From positions 1 through 12,253 of the forward strand of contig JBHHYO010000077.1 of NCBI GenBank assembly GCA_046757665.1: a stretch of 12,253 bases of DNA, read 5' to 3'. Positions 49-5,886 of this stretch are shown here, piece after piece (the stretch's first letter is position 1; each line of letters begins with the position of its first letter). Below the pieces are notes generated by a model, which saw nothing but the letters and a program-made list of their open reading frames with translations, was not told the origin of the DNA and did no database searches. Made by a program: the position numbers and the translations under genes. Origin of the DNA: Nitrospinales bacterium (lineage in GTDB: Bacteria > Nitrospinota > Nitrospinia > Nitrospinales > JAJDAT01).

Positions 49-2439
49 TTACAAATTTTCTTCCGGTTCCAGGCCGGATGAGCCGATGGGGTAATCCGGC
101 AGGTTGCGGGTCAGGAAGACCTCGAACTTGGCCTTGGGATCGGCGAAGTTGACGACCTTGCCGGTTTCGGGATCGATTTTCAGGAAAACGACGTCGTCGG
201 GGATGGGGAAGTTTTTTATCGGGGCGTCCCGGAGGGCGGCTTTCATGTATTGCAACCAGATGGGAATGGCCGCCCGGGACCCCGTTTCGTTGCGTCCCAG
301 GGATTCATCCTTATCGTTGCCCACCCACACTCCGGTGGCCAGTTCCGGCGTGTACCCCATGAACCAGGCGTCGACGAAGTTGTTGGTCGTTCCGGTTTTG
401 CCGGCGACGGGCCGTCCGAGCGCCCGGACTTTTTTCCCCGTGCCCTCCCGGACGACGCTTTGCAACAGGCTGGTCAGCGTATAAGCGACGCCGGGCGGAA
501 CGATTTGGCTGACTTCCGGTTCGTGCGTGTAAAGAATGTTGCCATTACGGTCCTCGATGAAACGGACGGCGGAGGGTTTGGCGCGGACGCCGAGGTTGGC
601 AAGAATGGCGTAGGCGGATGTCAACTCGAACAGGCTGACCCCGGAGGAACCCAGCGCGATGGAAAGGTTTTCTTCAAGTGGACTGGAAATTCCCAGGCCG
701 CGGGCAATCTCAATGGCCTTCTGCACACCGATGTCCCGCAGGAGCTTGATGGTGACGACGTTCCGCGAATGAGTGATGGCGGTGCGCAGGGACGTGGGGC
801 CGTAAAACTTTTCCTCGAAGTTGACGGGTTTCCATTTGTCAAAGGTGAACTCGGTTTCCTTGAAAATCAGCGGCGAGTCGATAATGATGCTTGCCGGCGT
901 GAATCCCTCGTTGATGGCGGCCGTGTAGATGATCGGTTTGAACGCGGAACCCGGCTGGCGAACCGATTGCCAGGCGCGGTTGAACTGGCTTTTTGAATAG
1001 TCGTATCCCCCGATCATTGCCTTGATGTGACCCGTTCGCGGGTCCAGGCTCAACAGGCTGGCTTCCACTTCCGGCTCTTGTTCCAGCCCCAGGGACCAGG
1101 TGAAATCGTCGTGGGTGCCGATGACCTTAACTTCGATGATGTCTCCGGCGGACAAGGCTTCGTCCGGACTCTTGATCCTTGCCCACCGCCCGTCGAGCTT
1201 GACGTTCGGTTGGCGTGCCCAGCGCATATTTTTCAATTTGAGGATGCCTTCGTTCTCTCCCAACTGGACGCGCACGTCACGCGAACCGACTTCCAGAACC
1301 ACGCCCTTGACAATATCGCCGATTTCCGGCGTCTGCCCGTCCTTGAAATTGTTGATTGCCATGACTTCTTTTTGTATGGCGGACAGGTCCCGGTTGATAT
1401 CAACGTGGCCGATCGGTCCCCGGTAGCCGTAGCGTTTGTCGGCCACGCGGAGATTGTGGCGGACGGCTTTTTGGGCGGCGAGCTGATAATTGATGTTCAG
1501 GGTGGTGTGCACCTTGAGTCCCGCCCGGTACAGCTTTGAGCTTCCGTAGGTGTCTTCGAGAAACTGGCGAATGTATTCGACGAAATAGGGCGCCTTGTTC
1601 AGCCGGTCGGCGATTTGCCCCAGTTTGATTTCGGATTTCATGGCCTGCTTCATTTGCGCCTGGGAGATGAAGTTGTTGCGCGCCATGTTGAGGATGGCGT
1701 GGTTGCGCCTTCTCTTTGCTTTTGCAGGATTGCGGTAGGGCGAATAGGAGTTGGGGGCCTTGGGCAGGCCGGCGATCATGGCGCATTCGGCGATGTCCAG
1801 CTCATTGACGTGCTTGCCGAAATAGGTGCGCGCCGCCGCCTCTACGCCATAAGCGCCGTGACCGTAATAAATCTGGTTGAGGTACATCTCCAGGATGTCT
1901 TTTTTGCTGAAGATCCTTTCAAGGCGGATGGCGAGGATGGCCTCGCGGATTTTTCGTTCGATGTTCTTTGCGCGTGACAGAAACAGCGTTTTGGAGAGTT
2001 GCTGGGTGATGGTGCTACCGCCCTCGACAATGCGTCCGGCTTTGAAGTTGGTGATCATGGCCCGGAAAATGGCCTTGAGATCGATGCCGGGATGTCTGTA
2101 AAAATTGGCGTCCTCCACCGCCAGCGTGGCTTGTTGCAGTTGTTTGGGGATTTTCTCCAGCGGTACGAGGATTCTTTTTTCGATATAAAATTCGGCGATC
2201 AACTCGTCGTTGTCGGAAAAAATTTGCGTGATGGTGCTGGGTTCGTAGGTTTTCAGGGTGCTGACGTCGGGCAGGTCCTTGGAATAATGGTAAAAGATAT
2301 AGGCCGCGCCGGCGAATCCGGTCAGCAGGCACATCAGGAAAAACCCGAAACAGGCGGTGAACAGGTTTTTCAGCAGGGAGCTTTTCTTTTTTTTCCTGCG
2401 GAGTTTTTTCCGTCGGGGTCTTTTTTCCGTTGCGCTCAT
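49..2439 (-). CDS. mrcA: Class A penicillin-binding protein 1A (bifunctional transglycosylase/transpeptidase)
   Basis: 796 aa. Basic cytoplasmic N-terminus and one TM helix; GT51 motifs EDANFYRHPG, GGSTITQQL, RKIRE, YLNQIYYG; OB-like insert; transpeptidase motifs SAFK (SxxK), SRN (SxN) and KTGT. Confidence 0.96.
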   Translation of the reverse strand: MSATEKRPRRKKLRRKKKKSSLLKNLFTACFGFFLMCLLTGFAGAAYIFYHYSKDLPDVSTLKTYEPSTITQIFSDNDELIAEFYIEKRILVPLEKIPKQLQQATLAVEDANFYRHPGIDLKAIFRAMITNFKAGRIVEGGSTITQQLSKTLFLSRAKNIERKIREAILAIRLERIFSKKDILEMYLNQIYYGHGAYGVEAAARTYFGKHVNELDIAECAMIAGLPKAPNSYSPYRNPAKAKRRRNHAILNMARNNFISQAQMKQAMKSEIKLGQIADRLNKAPYFVEYIRQFLEDTYGSSKLYRAGLKVHTTLNINYQLAAQKAVRHNLRVADKRYGYRGPIGHVDINRDLSAIQKEVMAINNFKDGQTPEIGDIVKGVVLEVGSRDVRVQLGENEGILKLKNMRWARQPNVKLDGRWARIKSPDEALSAGDIIEVKVIGTHDDFTWSLGLEQEPEVEASLLSLDPRTGHIKAMIGGYDYSKSQFNRAWQSVRQPGSAFKPIIYTAAINEGFTPASIIIDSPLIFKETEFTFDKWKPVNFEEKFYGPTSLRTAITHSRNVVTIKLLRDIGVQKAIEIARGLGISSPLEENLSIALGSSGVSLFELTSAYAILANLGVRAKPSAVRFIEDRNGNILYTHEPEVSQIVPPGVAYTLTSLLQSVVREGTGKKVRALGRPVAGKTGTTNNFVDAWFMGYTPELATGVWVGNDKDESLGRNETGSRAAIPIWLQYMKAALRDAPIKNFPIPDDVVFLKIDPETGKVVNFADPKAKFEVFLTRNLPDYPIGSSGLEPEENL

Positions 2440-2480
2440 TTTTTTGAGGTCGGTTTGGACGACCGGTTTGCGCCTCGCGG

Positions 2481-2507
2481 AGCCCCCGGAGGCAACTGCC
2501 GGGGGTT
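2481..2507. other. GC-rich intergenic hairpin between the DUF5069-like gene and PBP1A
   Basis: CCCCCGG (2483-2489) pairs with CCGGGGG (2499-2505), directly after the minus-strand TAA at 2507-2509. No U-tract follows on the minus strand, so it is not a classical intrinsic terminator. Confidence 0.4.
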
Positions 2508-2920
2508 TAGAGGCGGCCTTCTTCCAGGTCGATCAGGTCCACCCAGGTTTGAATGTCCGTTCTGGAGGGGTCGATAGCGTCGCGAAGTTCCAGAAATTTT
2601 TCCTTTTTTTCTTGCGTGTCGGGTTTCCGCCCGAGAATTTCCCGGTTGATCGACTGCTTTTCCTCCACGGCGCGGTCACGGATTTTTTCCTCAACCCAGC
2701 AGGCGAGGGAATCGTCCTCCTTGTCCTCCGCCCGTTGGGCGAACTCCTCTGCCGTCACGTCGAGGAAATTGAGGATGATGTTATCGAGAGGGCAGGGGAA
2801 GATGTATTCTCCCAAAGTCCCGGCGTTACGCGCCCGGGCTTTATCGATCATTCGCGGAATGTGAACCAGTCCGGCCAGGGTCTCTTTTGGACTGCGCGGA
2901 AACGTTTTTGTCAGGTTCAT
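2507..2920 (-). CDS. DUF5069-like domain protein
   Basis: From ATG 2920: MNLTKTFPRSPKETLAGLVHIPRMIDKARA...GTLGEYIFPCPLD..LNFL, matching my recollection of the DUF5069 signature (PRSP, PRMIDKARA, GEY, CPLD). 137 aa. An alternative ATG at 2971 has TAAGGA upstream. The track's TTG 3097 start lies inside a repeat. Confidence 0.8.
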   Translation of the reverse strand: MNLTKTFPRSPKETLAGLVHIPRMIDKARARNAGTLGEYIFPCPLDNIILNFLDVTAEEFAQRAEDKEDDSLACWVEEKIRDRAVEEKQSINREILGRKPDTQEKKEKFLELRDAIDPSRTDIQTWVDLIDLEEGRL

Positions 2921-2996
2921 GGGATTGCTCAAAAGGTTAGGCGAGCCGGGTTTCGATAGAGACCTTTGCATAACTCGAGATTCCTTAACCCCCAGT

Positions 2997-3101
2997 GTCA
3001 TCGCGAGCCGCCACCGCCGGCGTGGCGATCCAGCCGGGCCACGCCCGGTGGGAATGGGTCCTTTCTGGATTGCTTCGTCGGCGTCGTCTCCTCGCAATGA
3101 C
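2997..3101. repeat. CGTC-type REP / RPE-like palindromic element (about 105 bp)
   Basis: Outer arms GTCATCGCGAG (2997-3007) and CTCGCAATGAC (3091-3101), 10/11 complementary. Inner arms GCGATCCAG (3025-3033) and CTGGATTGC (3065-3073). Internal hairpin CCGGGC-cac-GCCCGG (3034-3048). Follows the known GTCATTGCGAG...GCAATC...GATTGCTTCG...CTCGCAATGAC repeat pattern. Confidence 0.85.
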
Positions 3102-3144
3102 GATCAAACAAGGATACTTATGCAAAACTCTCGTTCCGATAGGG

Positions 3145-3200
3145 CCGAAAAGCGCCGGAACAATCAATCAGTGTTGATTGACTGATCCGGCGCCTTCCGG
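3145..3200 (-). promoter_or_regulatory. Long mRNA hairpin covering the 3' end and stop codon of the ArfA-like ORF (candidate RNase III site)
   Basis: Minus strand: CCGGAAGGCGCCGGATCAGTCAATCA-acac-TGATTGATTGTTCCGGCGCTTTTCGG. 26-position stem with 22 Watson-Crick pairs, 3 G-U pairs and 1 U-U mismatch; 4-nt loop. The TGA stop is the first 3 nt of the 3' arm. Confidence 0.75.
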
Positions 3201-3344
3201 TTCCACTTTTTTCCCTTCGGTTCTCTTGTAGGTTTTTTTGGATTCCACGACCCGCTTGCGGAATTTCGGGTCGGACAAATTTTGGGCCACGGGATTATTT
3301 TCCCGGACCATTTTCCAGTTGGGTTTCGGTTTTTTTTGAGTCAC
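3168..3344 (-). CDS. Small basic protein resembling alternative ribosome rescue factor ArfA (58 aa; absent from the ORF track)
   Basis: Hand translation from GTG 3344: MTQKKPKPNWKMVRENNPVAQNLSDPKFRKRVVESKKTYKRTEGKKVEPEGAGSVNQH*. Strong SD AAGGAG (3355-3350) 5 nt upstream. Core NPVAQNLSDPKFRKRVVESKKTYKR aligns by eye with E. coli ArfA [28 protein letters not shown] (recalled sequence). Confidence 0.72.
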   Translation of the reverse strand: MTQKKPKPNWKMVRENNPVAQNLSDPKFRKRVVESKKTYKRTEGKKVEPEGAGSVNQH

Positions 3345-3382
3345 GGCTTCTCCTTTCGGGCGTGAGTGTTTGTAAACGGCGG

Positions 3383-3850
3383 TCAGTCCAGGCGGACCCT
3401 GGACAGCCGCGGAAAATTTTTTGACCGTTCGATGGCGCGTTTGCCCTCGGCGCCGATATGATTGCGAAACAAATCGAGCGTGGACAACTGCGGCAAGGTT
3501 TGCGAGGCGGCCAGATGCCGGGCGCCTGCCTCGCCGATTTCATTGAATTTTAAAACGAGTTGATCCAGCTTTCCCAGGGCCGGGGATTCTGCCAGCGCGC
3601 GGGCGCCCTCGGCGGTGATTTTGTTGGACTTCAAGTTCAGAATCCTCAAGTTGCCCAGATGGGGCGATTGTGCCAGGGCGGCCACGCCGTCATCGCCGAT
3701 TTCGTTGTCCCCCAGCAACAAGGCGGTCAGGTTTGCCGGCAATTCCATTTTAGCAAGTTTCGCGGCGCCTTCGTCACCGATTTTTTTATTCTCCAGGTCC
3801 AGCGTCCCGTCGCCCGCCAGGTTTTCCTGAACCAGTTTTTCAATGTCCAC
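3383..3850 (-). CDS. Small leucine-rich-repeat protein (ribonuclease-inhibitor-like/GALA-type 28-aa repeats)
   Basis: 155 aa, GTG start. About 5 tandem units such as LTALLLGDNEIGDDGVAALAQSPHLGN, LRILNLKSNKITAEGARALAESPALGK, LDQLVLKFNEIGEAGARHLAASQTLPQ, LSTLDLFRNHIGAEG. Confidence 0.9.
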   Translation of the reverse strand: MDIEKLVQENLAGDGTLDLENKKIGDEGAAKLAKMELPANLTALLLGDNEIGDDGVAALAQSPHLGNLRILNLKSNKITAEGARALAESPALGKLDQLVLKFNEIGEAGARHLAASQTLPQLSTLDLFRNHIGAEGKRAIERSKNFPRLSRVRLD

Positions 3851-4050
3851 GGATTTGCCCTCGATTTAGGAGCTTGCAGTGTAATTAATTTTTAAAGGCG
3901 GATCAAGGCGCGGTGGAAAAGAACAACAATGGGGACGCGGCCAAGCAGGGTTTTATAGCGGAAATTGATATTTTCAAAGCTCAATGAACATGGTATATTT
4001 AAATTTACAAAATTCAAGCCTGAAATTCGCTAATTTTCCAGGGGGTTGAC

Positions 4051-4407
4051 ATGAGAAAAATTCTGATGATTCTGGCCGTGTTGTTTTTTGTTTCTTCCTT
4101 GACGGCTTTTGCCGGCAACGAAGGCCCGATGCATTTCCCGAAAGGAGCCAATGCCGAGGCCAACATGCATAACGAAGAAGGTATCGCCGCATGGAACAAA
4201 GGCGATATCGAGGGCGCGCTGATGCATTTTCAGGCGGCGTCGAAAATCGACGGCAGTATCGGCGAATCCCATTTTAACGAGGCGGTTTGCCTCGACAAGC
4301 TGGGCCGGCACGGCCTCGCGGCAATGCACTTCAAGGCCGCCAAATCAAACGCCCACGGCAACAGTAAAATTTTGAATTCCCCGATCCTCAACGCGCATCT
4401 GCACTGA
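4051..4407 (+). CDS. Secreted TPR-repeat protein, Met/His-rich
   Basis: 118 aa. Sec signal peptide MRKILMILAVLFFVSSLTAFA|G; two TPR-like units (HNEEGIAAWNKGDIEGALMHFQAASKID and HFNEAVCLDKLGRHGLAAMHFKAA). SD-like AGGGGG at 4040-4045. Confidence 0.8.
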   Translation: MRKILMILAVLFFVSSLTAFAGNEGPMHFPKGANAEANMHNEEGIAAWNKGDIEGALMHFQAASKIDGSIGESHFNEAVCLDKLGRHGLAAMHFKAAKSNAHGNSKILNSPILNAHLH

Positions 4408-4440
4408 GGATCCGCACCAGATCGACCCGGGGAACGTCGA

Positions 4441-4467
4441 CGCGCCTCGAGCGGACGGCGCGCTTTT
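4441..4467 (+). terminator. Possible weak intrinsic terminator of the TPR gene
   Basis: CGCGCC (4441-4446) pairs with GGCGCG (4457-4462), followed by C and TTTT, about 35 nt after the stop codon. Confidence 0.35.
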
Positions 4468-4680
4468 ACAATCGGTTTTGCCTTGTGGCTGGATACGGGA
4501 AAAATCCGCCGGTCTCCGAACTCCTCGCCGCGAACCTTTAAAGGCGTTTCGCGCATCTTATTAACAGGGACAAAGAAAGCATTTACAGTTTAAACGTTTT
4601 CTTCGGAGACCAAAAATCAGCTCTTTGCCTGTAGTGGTTGTGGGCGGATGCCAGACCTGAAAAACGATTGAGTTACAAGA

Positions 4681-4728
4681 CAACGGAAAAGCCTATCTCC
4701 ACTTCAGGGGAGATAGGCTTTTTTGTTG
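4681..4728 (+). terminator. Strong Rho-independent terminator
   Basis: Perfect 10-bp stem GCCTATCTCC (4691-4700) / GGAGATAGGC (4709-4718), 8-nt loop, then T6 (4719-4724). Extendable to 20 bp via CAACGGAAAA / TTTTTTGTTG with two G-U pairs on the plus strand. Confidence 0.88.
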
Positions 4729-4888
4729 GCTGGGGTTTGTAACAGAAATTTTCTTGCAGAGAAATGTTGGCGATGAGGTCGTCAAAAAAACATCGAATAC
4801 CGTGTGAAAACCCGGTTGGCCCAAAAAAGATAATTTCGGGCCAGTACGAGAAATATGTGCCGCCCTAGCCTGACGGGGGGTGATTGTC

Positions 4889-5350
4889 ATGAAATGTTTC
4901 TTTGCCGGAGTGGTGTTTGTCGTTGCTTTCTTCTGCAATGCGCCTGCCGCGGCGGGTATGCCCTATCTTGCCGCCGAGCCCGCCTTAAACCAGCAGTTGG
5001 ACTGGAACCTGATGCCGAACGGTCTGCTGTGCGTCGATTATGACCGGGACGGCAACGGCAAAGCGGATTTTCATACCCTGCGGATAGTCGTTCGGGCTTT
5101 TTATTCCCTTGATACAATCTATACGGTCACTAAAAACAATCCCCGCAACCTGATCTTTTTCGTGGGCAACGCCAAGGTGAAGTTCTATTACGTGGCGGTG
5201 CTGGCGCCGCTCCTCTACGCGATTGACATCAATGAAGACGGCCATTGGGATTTGATCTACAAGGATGTTTCCCAGGATGGGGTGAACGGCAACGAACAGT
5301 TTTATGACAGCCCATCCGGAATGTTTGCTCCGAATATCCAGTATTTTTGA
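4889..5350 (+). CDS. Exported hypothetical protein with Dx[DN]xDG-type putative Ca2+-binding loops
   Basis: 153 aa from ATG 4889 (GGGGGTG upstream). Signal-like MKCFFAGVVFVVAFFCNAPAAA; motifs DRDGNGKAD, DINEDGHWD and DVSQDGVNGNE. Confidence 0.72.
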   Translation: MKCFFAGVVFVVAFFCNAPAAAGMPYLAAEPALNQQLDWNLMPNGLLCVDYDRDGNGKADFHTLRIVVRAFYSLDTIYTVTKNNPRNLIFFVGNAKVKFYYVAVLAPLLYAIDINEDGHWDLIYKDVSQDGVNGNEQFYDSPSGMFAPNIQYF

Positions 5351-5481
5351 AATGGGGTCCTCCGGACGAAAAAGCAACAAGCAGGGAAAAGTTTTACCAT
5401 TATTCAGTGGCTTCTTCCCGGGTTTTTGCTAAACTGAAGGGCAATGGATCTTGTTATTAAGTTGAAGGGGGGACGCAGACA

Positions 5482-5886
5482 ATGATGGGTATTGGTTTTC
5501 CGGAATTGATGATCATTCTGGTCATCATCATGATTATATTCGGCGCGGGCAAGCTTCCGCAAATCGGTAGCGCCTTCGGCAACAGCATCAAAAATTTCAA
5601 ACGCTCCATGAAGGAAGCGGAAGAGGTGCCTCTGGAATCCGCCGACGCCACAGGCGCCGACGCCACGTCCGCCGCTCCGGAAGACGCGAAACAGGCCGGC
5701 GTCAAGAAGAAAGAGGAAGAGTTGATCGACGAGGCCGCCGCCGAGGTCGAGAAAAACCGCATCGGCACCATAACCACCCGGCATGACGGCCTGGTGCAGG
5801 AGGGGGACGTGTTCACCGAATCGGTGAAGAAAACTCCTTTCGGCATGAAATCGACGGACCGCGGCGTTTCCCGCGATGTGCTTTAG
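5482..5886 (+). CDS. tatA: Twin-arginine translocase TatA/TatE family subunit with a long C-terminal tail
   Basis: MMGIGFPELMIILVIIMIIFGAGKLPQIGSAFGNSIKNFKRSM: TM helix, FGxxKLP hinge and amphipathic helix ending in FK. SD-like AAGGGGGGA upstream. 134 aa. Confidence 0.93.
   Translation: MMGIGFPELMIILVIIMIIFGAGKLPQIGSAFGNSIKNFKRSMKEAEEVPLESADATGADATSAAPEDAKQAGVKKKEEELIDEAAAEVEKNRIGTITTRHDGLVQEGDVFTESVKKTPFGMKSTDRGVSRDVL

Follow-up and report, generated by a model that had tools for sequence, protein, structure and literature searches.

A small conserved gene of the Nitrospinales encodes a remote homologue of the ribosome-rescue factor ArfA and carries a covarying hairpin at its coding end

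The closest described system to the gene considered here is ArfA (YhdL; PF03889), the E. coli type of ribosome-rescue factor, which works with RF2. In the sections of a review that deal with it, ArfA is described as having a helix at residues 15–24 and as contacting RF2 through F25 and the beta-strand Q27–E30, and the stem-loop of arfA as leading, via premature termination or RNase III cleavage, to a non-stop mRNA, with trans-translation controlling what is made from it (PMC8012679). The same sections limit ArfA to beta- and gammaproteobacteria (PMC8012679), and the part of a 2024 survey of over 15,000 genomes that covers its distribution likewise reports it only from Gammaproteobacteria, some Betaproteobacteria and ten Bacillus species (PMC11633108). 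BrfA of Bacillus and ArfT of Francisella carry out the release-factor-dependent rescue job that we propose below for the present peptide; where the review treats them, both are described as having no sequence relation to ArfA, and brfA is noted to be under trans-translation control as well (PMC8012679). ArfB (YaeJ), in the corresponding section, is described as serving as a back-up in rescue, its basic tail being placed in the mRNA channel (PMC8012679), features that the present peptide may share; it differs in having a GGQ hydrolase (RF-1) domain of its own, of which the peptide, at 58 residues, has none.

The stretch of DNA analysed here (the window) comprises 12,253 nucleotides of a contig (JBHHYO010000077.1) from a Nitrospinales bacterium (GCA_046757665.1). 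An earlier note, made from the letters of the window, had picked out a 58-aa ORF with a GTG start, a strong Shine-Dalgarno sequence at a 5-nt spacing and a Lys/Arg-rich product with a recognizable core, and had read it as a diverged relative of ArfA. The frame is confirmed on the minus strand, where it is closed by TGA, the AAGGAG sequence is present in front of it, and the translation is identical to that given (Table 1). We consider it probable, though by no means assured, that the product is a diverged ArfA-type rescue factor that would depend on a release factor and would be made from a hairpin-truncated, stop-less mRNA. A conserved gene with distant kinship to ArfA and the same kind of hairpin is, for these reasons taken together, probably the missing back-up rescue factor of the phylum.

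Table 1. Features of the window around the small ORF
Feature	Position	Strand	Remarks
CDS, Lys/Arg-rich ArfA-like peptide, 58 codons	3168..3344	minus	GTG start; TGA stop 3168-3170
Shine-Dalgarno AAGGAG	3350..3355	minus	5-nt spacer to GTG; directly read
Conserved core, codons 13-41, N-P-V-A..L....F-R.RV..SKK.Y.R	3222..3308	minus	aligns to ArfA residues 10-41
Core of long near-perfect RNA hairpin	3145..3200	minus	candidate RNase III site or 3'-end former
Extended hairpin as folded	3141..3216	minus	dG -46.0 kcal/mol, 29 pairs, z -8.6 vs dinucleotide shuffles
PBP1A gene	49-2439	minus	Pfam scan of window
DUF5069 protein gene	2507-3097	minus	Pfam scan of window
LRR protein gene	3383-3850	minus	Pfam scan of window; ends 38 nt before small ORF

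Rfam and tRNA scans of the window returned nothing. Upstream of the LRR gene lies a stretch of lower G+C content (3890–5400; 0.48–0.49 at 4501–5500) which holds two plus-strand ORFs with signal-peptide-like starts (4051–4407 and 4880–5350), and in which a Pfam scan of the minus-strand ORFs gave no match. A further plus-strand ORF of 134 codons (5482–5886) has an N-terminus that by eye resembles TatA/TatE of the twin-arginine translocase.

Relationship to ArfA and to DUF7230

The by-eye alignment to E. coli ArfA in the earlier note, in which the GKG loop was missing and Ala18 faced Gln, was recovered by two programs. BLASTP aligned residues 16–37 of the window protein to residues 13–34 of E. 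coli K-12 ArfA with 45% identity over the 22 residues (E 3e-5 in a single comparison), and hhalign gave the same alignment, with Gln21 opposite Ala18. The two proteins have in common that they are small and rich in Lys and Arg, that they can be aligned over some 30–50 residues, and that their elements follow the same order: a short helix, [FY]-R-x-R-V, K-K and Y-x-R. At the level of sequence only, F28 and K30-R31-V32-V33 align to F25 and Q27–E30 of ArfA, its RF2-contact segment. This segment, [FY]-R-x-[RQK]-V, is the best conserved part of the alignment, and across the family positions [FY]28 and R29 are either conserved or invariant. The window protein differs from ArfA in having neither the three-residue GKG loop (K-G-K-G-S in ArfA) nor the KH motif, no K-H pair following Y-x-R in the hhalign alignment of the window peptide, and in the exchange of Ala18 for Gln; its lineage also lies outside the beta- and gammaproteobacteria to which the cited parts of both surveys of the field assign ArfA (PMC8012679; PMC11633108).

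Profile comparisons extend this likeness to the family. An alignment of 15 Nitrospinota sequences (A1), used as a profile against 1.84 billion representative proteins, gave 417 matches at E up to 0.001, with the consensus N-P-x-A-K-x-L-x-x-P-x-Y-R-x-R-V-V-x-S-K-K-x-Y-x-R-K; the best 150 of the 417 are all 34–135 residues long. A wide family alignment (A2) was built from 110 of these matches. When its profile was compared with all PDB sequences, the top six matches were ArfA (E 3e-5 to 3.7e-4), the next match having an E of 2.7. Because A2 contains ArfA-like members, the 13 scoring best on an enterobacterial ArfA model were taken out and the remaining 97 sequences realigned (A6); ArfA still supplied the top six matches (E 5e-4 to 3.7e-3), followed by a match at E 0.91. 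The Nitrospinota-only profile A1 found no ArfA chain in PDB at E 10. Against 15 ArfA sequences, all of them enterobacterial (A3), hhalign gave 94.6% for A2, 90.8% for A6 and 46.8% for the shallow A1, and all three alignments show a three-residue gap at the GKG loop of ArfA.

A single protein, P0262, is close to both sides of this comparison. It was found by the A1 profile, again in the library of 1.84 billion proteins, at E 2.1e-5; it contains a K-G-K-G-S-Y motif and scores 32.2 bits on the Pfam ArfA model, above the curated cut-off of 25.5 bits. By BLASTP it shares 52% identity with the window protein over 27 residues (E 6e-9) and 52% with E. coli ArfA over 31 residues (E 2e-9), and it matches phrog_20887 at E 8.9e-7. 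A search for homologues with P0262 as query returned only P0262 itself.

With A2 as the input alignment, AlphaFold2 modelled the peptide (mean pLDDT 80.6) as an extended chain interrupted by a single short helix at residues 18–23; the helix of ArfA cited above spans residues 15–24. Foldseek of this model against PDB gave two matches at E up to 10, both of them ArfA (5mdw_6 and 5mgp_w), at non-significant E values of 7.0 and 7.5. A complex prediction with the RF2 of the same genome (alignment A5) and the peptide (alignment A2) scored 0.00, which speaks neither way.

Curated family models do not recover the window protein. The window protein matched neither Pfam ArfA nor Pfam DUF7230 (PF23876; cut-off 27 bits) at E up to 10 and found no match in NCBIfam, and when the genome was searched in all six frames (E up to 1), neither PF03889 nor PF23876 matched at the ORF. 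None of the 15 Nitrospinota members matched Pfam ArfA at E up to 1, and three of the 15 matched DUF7230 weakly at the same limit (best E 0.0018). The window protein does match phrog_20887, a family with no curated cut-off, over residues 16–42 (E 1.6e-8, 35.3 bits). The likeness to an ArfA profile expected in the earlier note stands as regards hhalign (46.8–94.6%) and the PDB matches of the wide family profile, which were only to ArfA, but not as regards the Pfam ArfA model. Since the protein falls below the Pfam ArfA threshold and has neither GKG loop, KH motif nor Ala18, we do not file it as a member of the ArfA family. On these sequence comparisons it is a remote ArfA homologue, a sister branch that probably works like ArfA; the pairwise E value, the PDB profile search and hhalign, together with the covarying hairpin inside the ORF described below, bear out the diverged-ArfA reading of the earlier note.

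DUF7230 and phrog_20887 comprise small proteins of unknown function, largely from phages, whose consensus N-P-x-A-K-x-L-x-x-P-K-Y-R-x-R-V-V-x-S-K-K-x-Y-N-R-K is shared with the present family, as is the missing GKG loop; the window protein differs in being itself unmatched by DUF7230 and in being encoded on a chromosome in a cellular lineage. One alternative is that the window protein belongs to a wider DUF7230/phrog_20887/ArfA superfamily as a small, basic protein that binds ribosomes or RNA in another role, such as modulation of translation, so that it would share ancestry with ArfA and not mechanism. The composition of the family favours such a role, as 48 of the 110 members of A2 match DUF7230 and 11 match Pfam ArfA (both at E up to 1) and among named Atlas clusters DUF7230 (78% viral) is the nearest, and so does the loss of the GKG loop, the KH motif and Ala18. 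However, the part of ArfA that contacts RF2 according to the structural section of the review (PMC8012679) is the very part that is best conserved, the arfA-type hairpin is retained, and no other known back-up rescue factor was found in the genome. We consider this alternative unlikely on balance and prefer a role in release-factor-dependent rescue.

A tblastn search of 50,697 phage records gave nothing at E 1e-3. Two proteins met in the course of these comparisons deserve mention in their own right. In another genome of the window's family, an ORF of 45 codons (L013, in the region G002:C83:12696-12833) contains R-V-E-K-P-K-K-G-R-G-S-Y-N-R-R and keeps a GKG-type loop; it scores 23.8 bits on Pfam ArfA compared to the cut-off of 25.5. 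P0223, a family member of 135 aa, has an ArfA-like N-terminus fused to a longer C-terminal part that by eye is ParB/Srx-like.

A conserved hairpin in the coding end

The 3' end of the small ORF is folded into a long, near-perfect RNA hairpin, a feature absent from the earlier note. Its 5' arm is formed by codons 49–57 and its loop by codon 58, while the 3' arm opens with the three bases of the TGA; the end of the stem includes a TTTT run. Of 3,951 long stop-to-stop frames in the genome, 59 have a fold energy around the stop equal to or below that of this gene, which places it in the lowest 1.5%. Two other identities for the hairpin were considered: it is not a repeat element, its sequence being unique in the genome, and no classical intrinsic terminator was recognized, a consensus scan of 2400–4000 giving no terminator-like site.

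We surveyed 31 loci, namely the 30 from the phylum profile search (the window included) and L012. A long hairpin of 23–32 bp, beginning just 3' of the conserved core, was present at 18 of these. For 17 of the 18 (L044 left out), folding gave 23–32 pairs, dG values of -31.1 to -54.5 and z scores of -4.6 to -9.7. The hairpin starts 21–40 nt past the Y-x-R codons wherever the stop falls: the whole structure is inside the ORF at 13 of the 18 loci and the stop lies in the loop or the 3' arm at the other five, including the window, and at none of the 18 is the hairpin wholly downstream of the stop. Stem sequences differ between genera and pairing is kept. RNAalifold on an unguided MAFFT alignment (A4) predicted 22 pairs, and at 15 of these compensatory double changes occur; 90.6% of cells pair compared to 76.3% in shuffles, none of 500 shuffles reached the observed value, and sliding the partner by 1–3 columns as a control left 30–54% paired. 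The hairpin is thus conserved with compensatory changes, and it is so at an arfA-like position, as the same fold method places the hairpin of E. coli arfA ~27 nt after the R41 codon that anchors Y-x-R. In both systems a long hairpin follows the Y-x-R codons at a distance of ~20–40 nt; in arfA the stop codon comes after the hairpin, whereas in the window copy the hairpin contains it.

The long hairpin was absent from 13 of the 31 loci, which belong to genus g9, genus g12 and a diverged group in family f2. In genus g10 (L027, L029, L031, L032, L034, L038 and L042–L044) the hairpin's 3' arm codes for hydrophobic C-terminal residues (G-G-L-M-G-S-F-S and similar sequences). These endings recall the hydrophobic tail that destabilises full-length E. 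coli ArfA, a likeness between ArfA and some relatives of the window protein.

A second alternative accepts that the window protein is homologous to ArfA and rescues ribosomes, but supposes that it is translated from an ordinary mRNA with its stop codon intact. The hairpin of this copy would then serve only to stabilise the 3' end or as a weak terminator, and tmRNA feedback would be absent. Several features of the window copy and its relatives agree with this: the stop at the first bases of the 3' arm, the TTTT run at the end of the stem, the three loci of genus g9 with a normal small hairpin after the stop or none, and a translation with no hydrophobic or degron-like tail. It fits poorly with the lack of a terminator-like site in the consensus scan and with the 13 of 18 hairpins that lie wholly inside the ORF, unlike an ordinary terminator. 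A stem of 25 bp or more is expected of an RNase III substrate, and the stem here, at least 25 bp, has the length of one in a genome that encodes RNase III. An ordinary, stop-keeping message therefore seems to us rather improbable, and we retain the reading in which the message is stop-less.

Conservation and the complement of rescue genes

The earlier note had proposed conservation in relatives, together with dN/dS, as a check on the gene, and on both counts the 58-codon ORF is a real, conserved gene under purifying selection. An exact-word search of 5.8 billion proteins yielded 4 of 4 candidates as matches: three close metagenome copies with 75–86% identity and the protein itself. A six-frame search with the single protein found relatives in 11 of 41 related genomes, and the A1 profile in 32 of 120 genomes of the phylum. 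By family, the profile matched in 5/5 genomes of f4, 16/21 of f3 and 10/70 of f2, in none of five in the window's own family (f1) besides the window, and in 0/18 of families f5–f9. Residues P18, A20, L23, R29, S35, K37, Y39 and R41 are invariant in A1. Over codons 1–45, dN/dS is 0.02–0.50 in 47 of 49 within-genus pairs, the other two having saturated dS. Because none of the five neighbours of the ORF in the window was found at the 29 other loci, the small ORF moves as its own unit. The protein at L009 (identical to P0131), in a genome of the window's order, is labelled by NCBI as 'Nitrospinae/Nitrospinota bacterium, hypothetical protein'.

The idea of a fortuitous ORF on top of a terminator or structured RNA of the upstream LRR gene, an idea to which its very short length, its GTG start, its position 38 nt after that same-strand gene and the lack of a match to any curated family might point, is barely credible against a core kept across at least three families of the order at saturated synonymous sites (dS up to ~3) with the dN/dS values given above, a Shine-Dalgarno motif before most copies, and neighbours that change while the ORF persists.

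Two loci assigned to different families, L046 (G058, family f2) and L045 (G048, family f3), have almost identical peptides and hairpins, which suggests either transfer or a mis-binned contig.

The genome encodes SmpB and RNase III. It contains exactly two genes with an RF-1 domain, in open frames of 373 and 354 codons; one of the two genes is RF2 and the other RF1; the RF2 gene prfB (G000:C1:36704-37900; L022/L058) has SPF and the classic programmed +1 frameshift site CTT TGA C. As these two genes account for all RF-1 domains, no ArfB was found, and a search of the genome for NFACT_N (RqcH) found none. Across the phylum, three RF-1 matches were seen in 5 of 102 genomes of the order, the rest having at most two, and three or four in 6 of 18 genomes of other families. 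Neither Rfam (above threshold) nor ARAGORN detected tmRNA in the 160 contigs of this assembly. We take this to be an assembly gap, since a tmRNA passing the Rfam threshold is present in 38 of the 41 genomes of the order that were searched.

In the table of the 2024 survey that lists the phylum, the two Nitrospinae/Tectomicrobia genomes have smpB (2) and ssrA (2) and score 0 for arfB, arfA and rqcH (PMC11633108 Table 1), in line with the statement of the earlier note that it knew of no description of a rescue factor of this kind in the lineage. Among the papers searched, we found none describing an ArfA relative in Nitrospinota, and none containing 'DUF7230'.

Proposed mechanism and the wider family

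The analogy with ArfA suggests how such a peptide might work. Its basic C-terminal half (S-K-K-x-Y-K-R and the lysines that follow) would probe the mRNA entry channel, empty in a ribosome that has stalled at the 3' end of a message lacking a stop codon. The helix at residues 18–23 and the F-R-K-R-V-V segment would occupy the decoding centre and there bring in a class-I release factor, by analogy most likely RF2, with RF1 as the alternative. The recruited factor would then hydrolyse the peptidyl-tRNA.

Expression is probably gated as in arfA. RNase III would cut the long hairpin that follows the core (in a few relatives, transcription would end there instead), leaving a message without a stop codon, the product of which would be tagged by tmRNA-SmpB and degraded, so that the factor would build up only once trans-translation is saturated. 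It is from ArfA that we infer ribosome binding, release-factor recruitment, RNase III cleavage and tmRNA feedback alike. In the window copy this gating would be weaker because the stop lies inside the hairpin, and would be lost only by a cut in the 5' arm; a transcript ending after the hairpin keeps the stop, and the full-length and truncated proteins differ by at most ~10 residues.

How such bacteria cope when trans-translation is saturated is a gap that a diverged branch of ArfA with a self-limiting hairpin would, if the proposal is true, fill. It would also mean that most of the family has been missed by curated models, and would supply a testable function for DUF7230 and phrog_20887, and with them for many phage proteins. 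The family may further be regarded as a natural experiment on which features of ArfA are essential, since it retains the helix, the F-R-x-R-V strand and the basic tail but not the GKG loop, KH motif or Ala18.

A broader proposal is put forward only tentatively, and we would not be surprised to see it fail. ArfA may be no speciality of the proteobacteria but one branch of a large, mostly unannotated superfamily of release-factor-recruiting rescue peptides spread across bacteria and phages, made up of ArfA, DUF7230, phrog_20887 and the Nitrospinota clades (417 representative clusters). The coding-end hairpin that yields a stop-less, tmRNA-gated message would then be either ancestral or repeatedly re-invented, and in Nitrospinota the peptide would be the sole back-up to trans-translation.

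A second, more diverged subfamily was observed in genera g2, g22, g3 and g8, at loci L100–L110 (in G003, G004, G001, G098, G100, G092, G078, G065, G033, G101 and G097), with the core K-Q-L-Q-S-K-R-Y-H-V-K...N-K-K-A-Y-x-R. At nine of these 11 loci the 3' coding end is closed by a stem of ~10 bp (GGAATTCAGG ... CCTGAATTCC) whose 3' arm contains the stop codon; one locus has a TAA stop and a 5' arm changed to match. Most proteins of this subfamily end in L-A-A or similar, which we take to resemble the end of the tmRNA tag.
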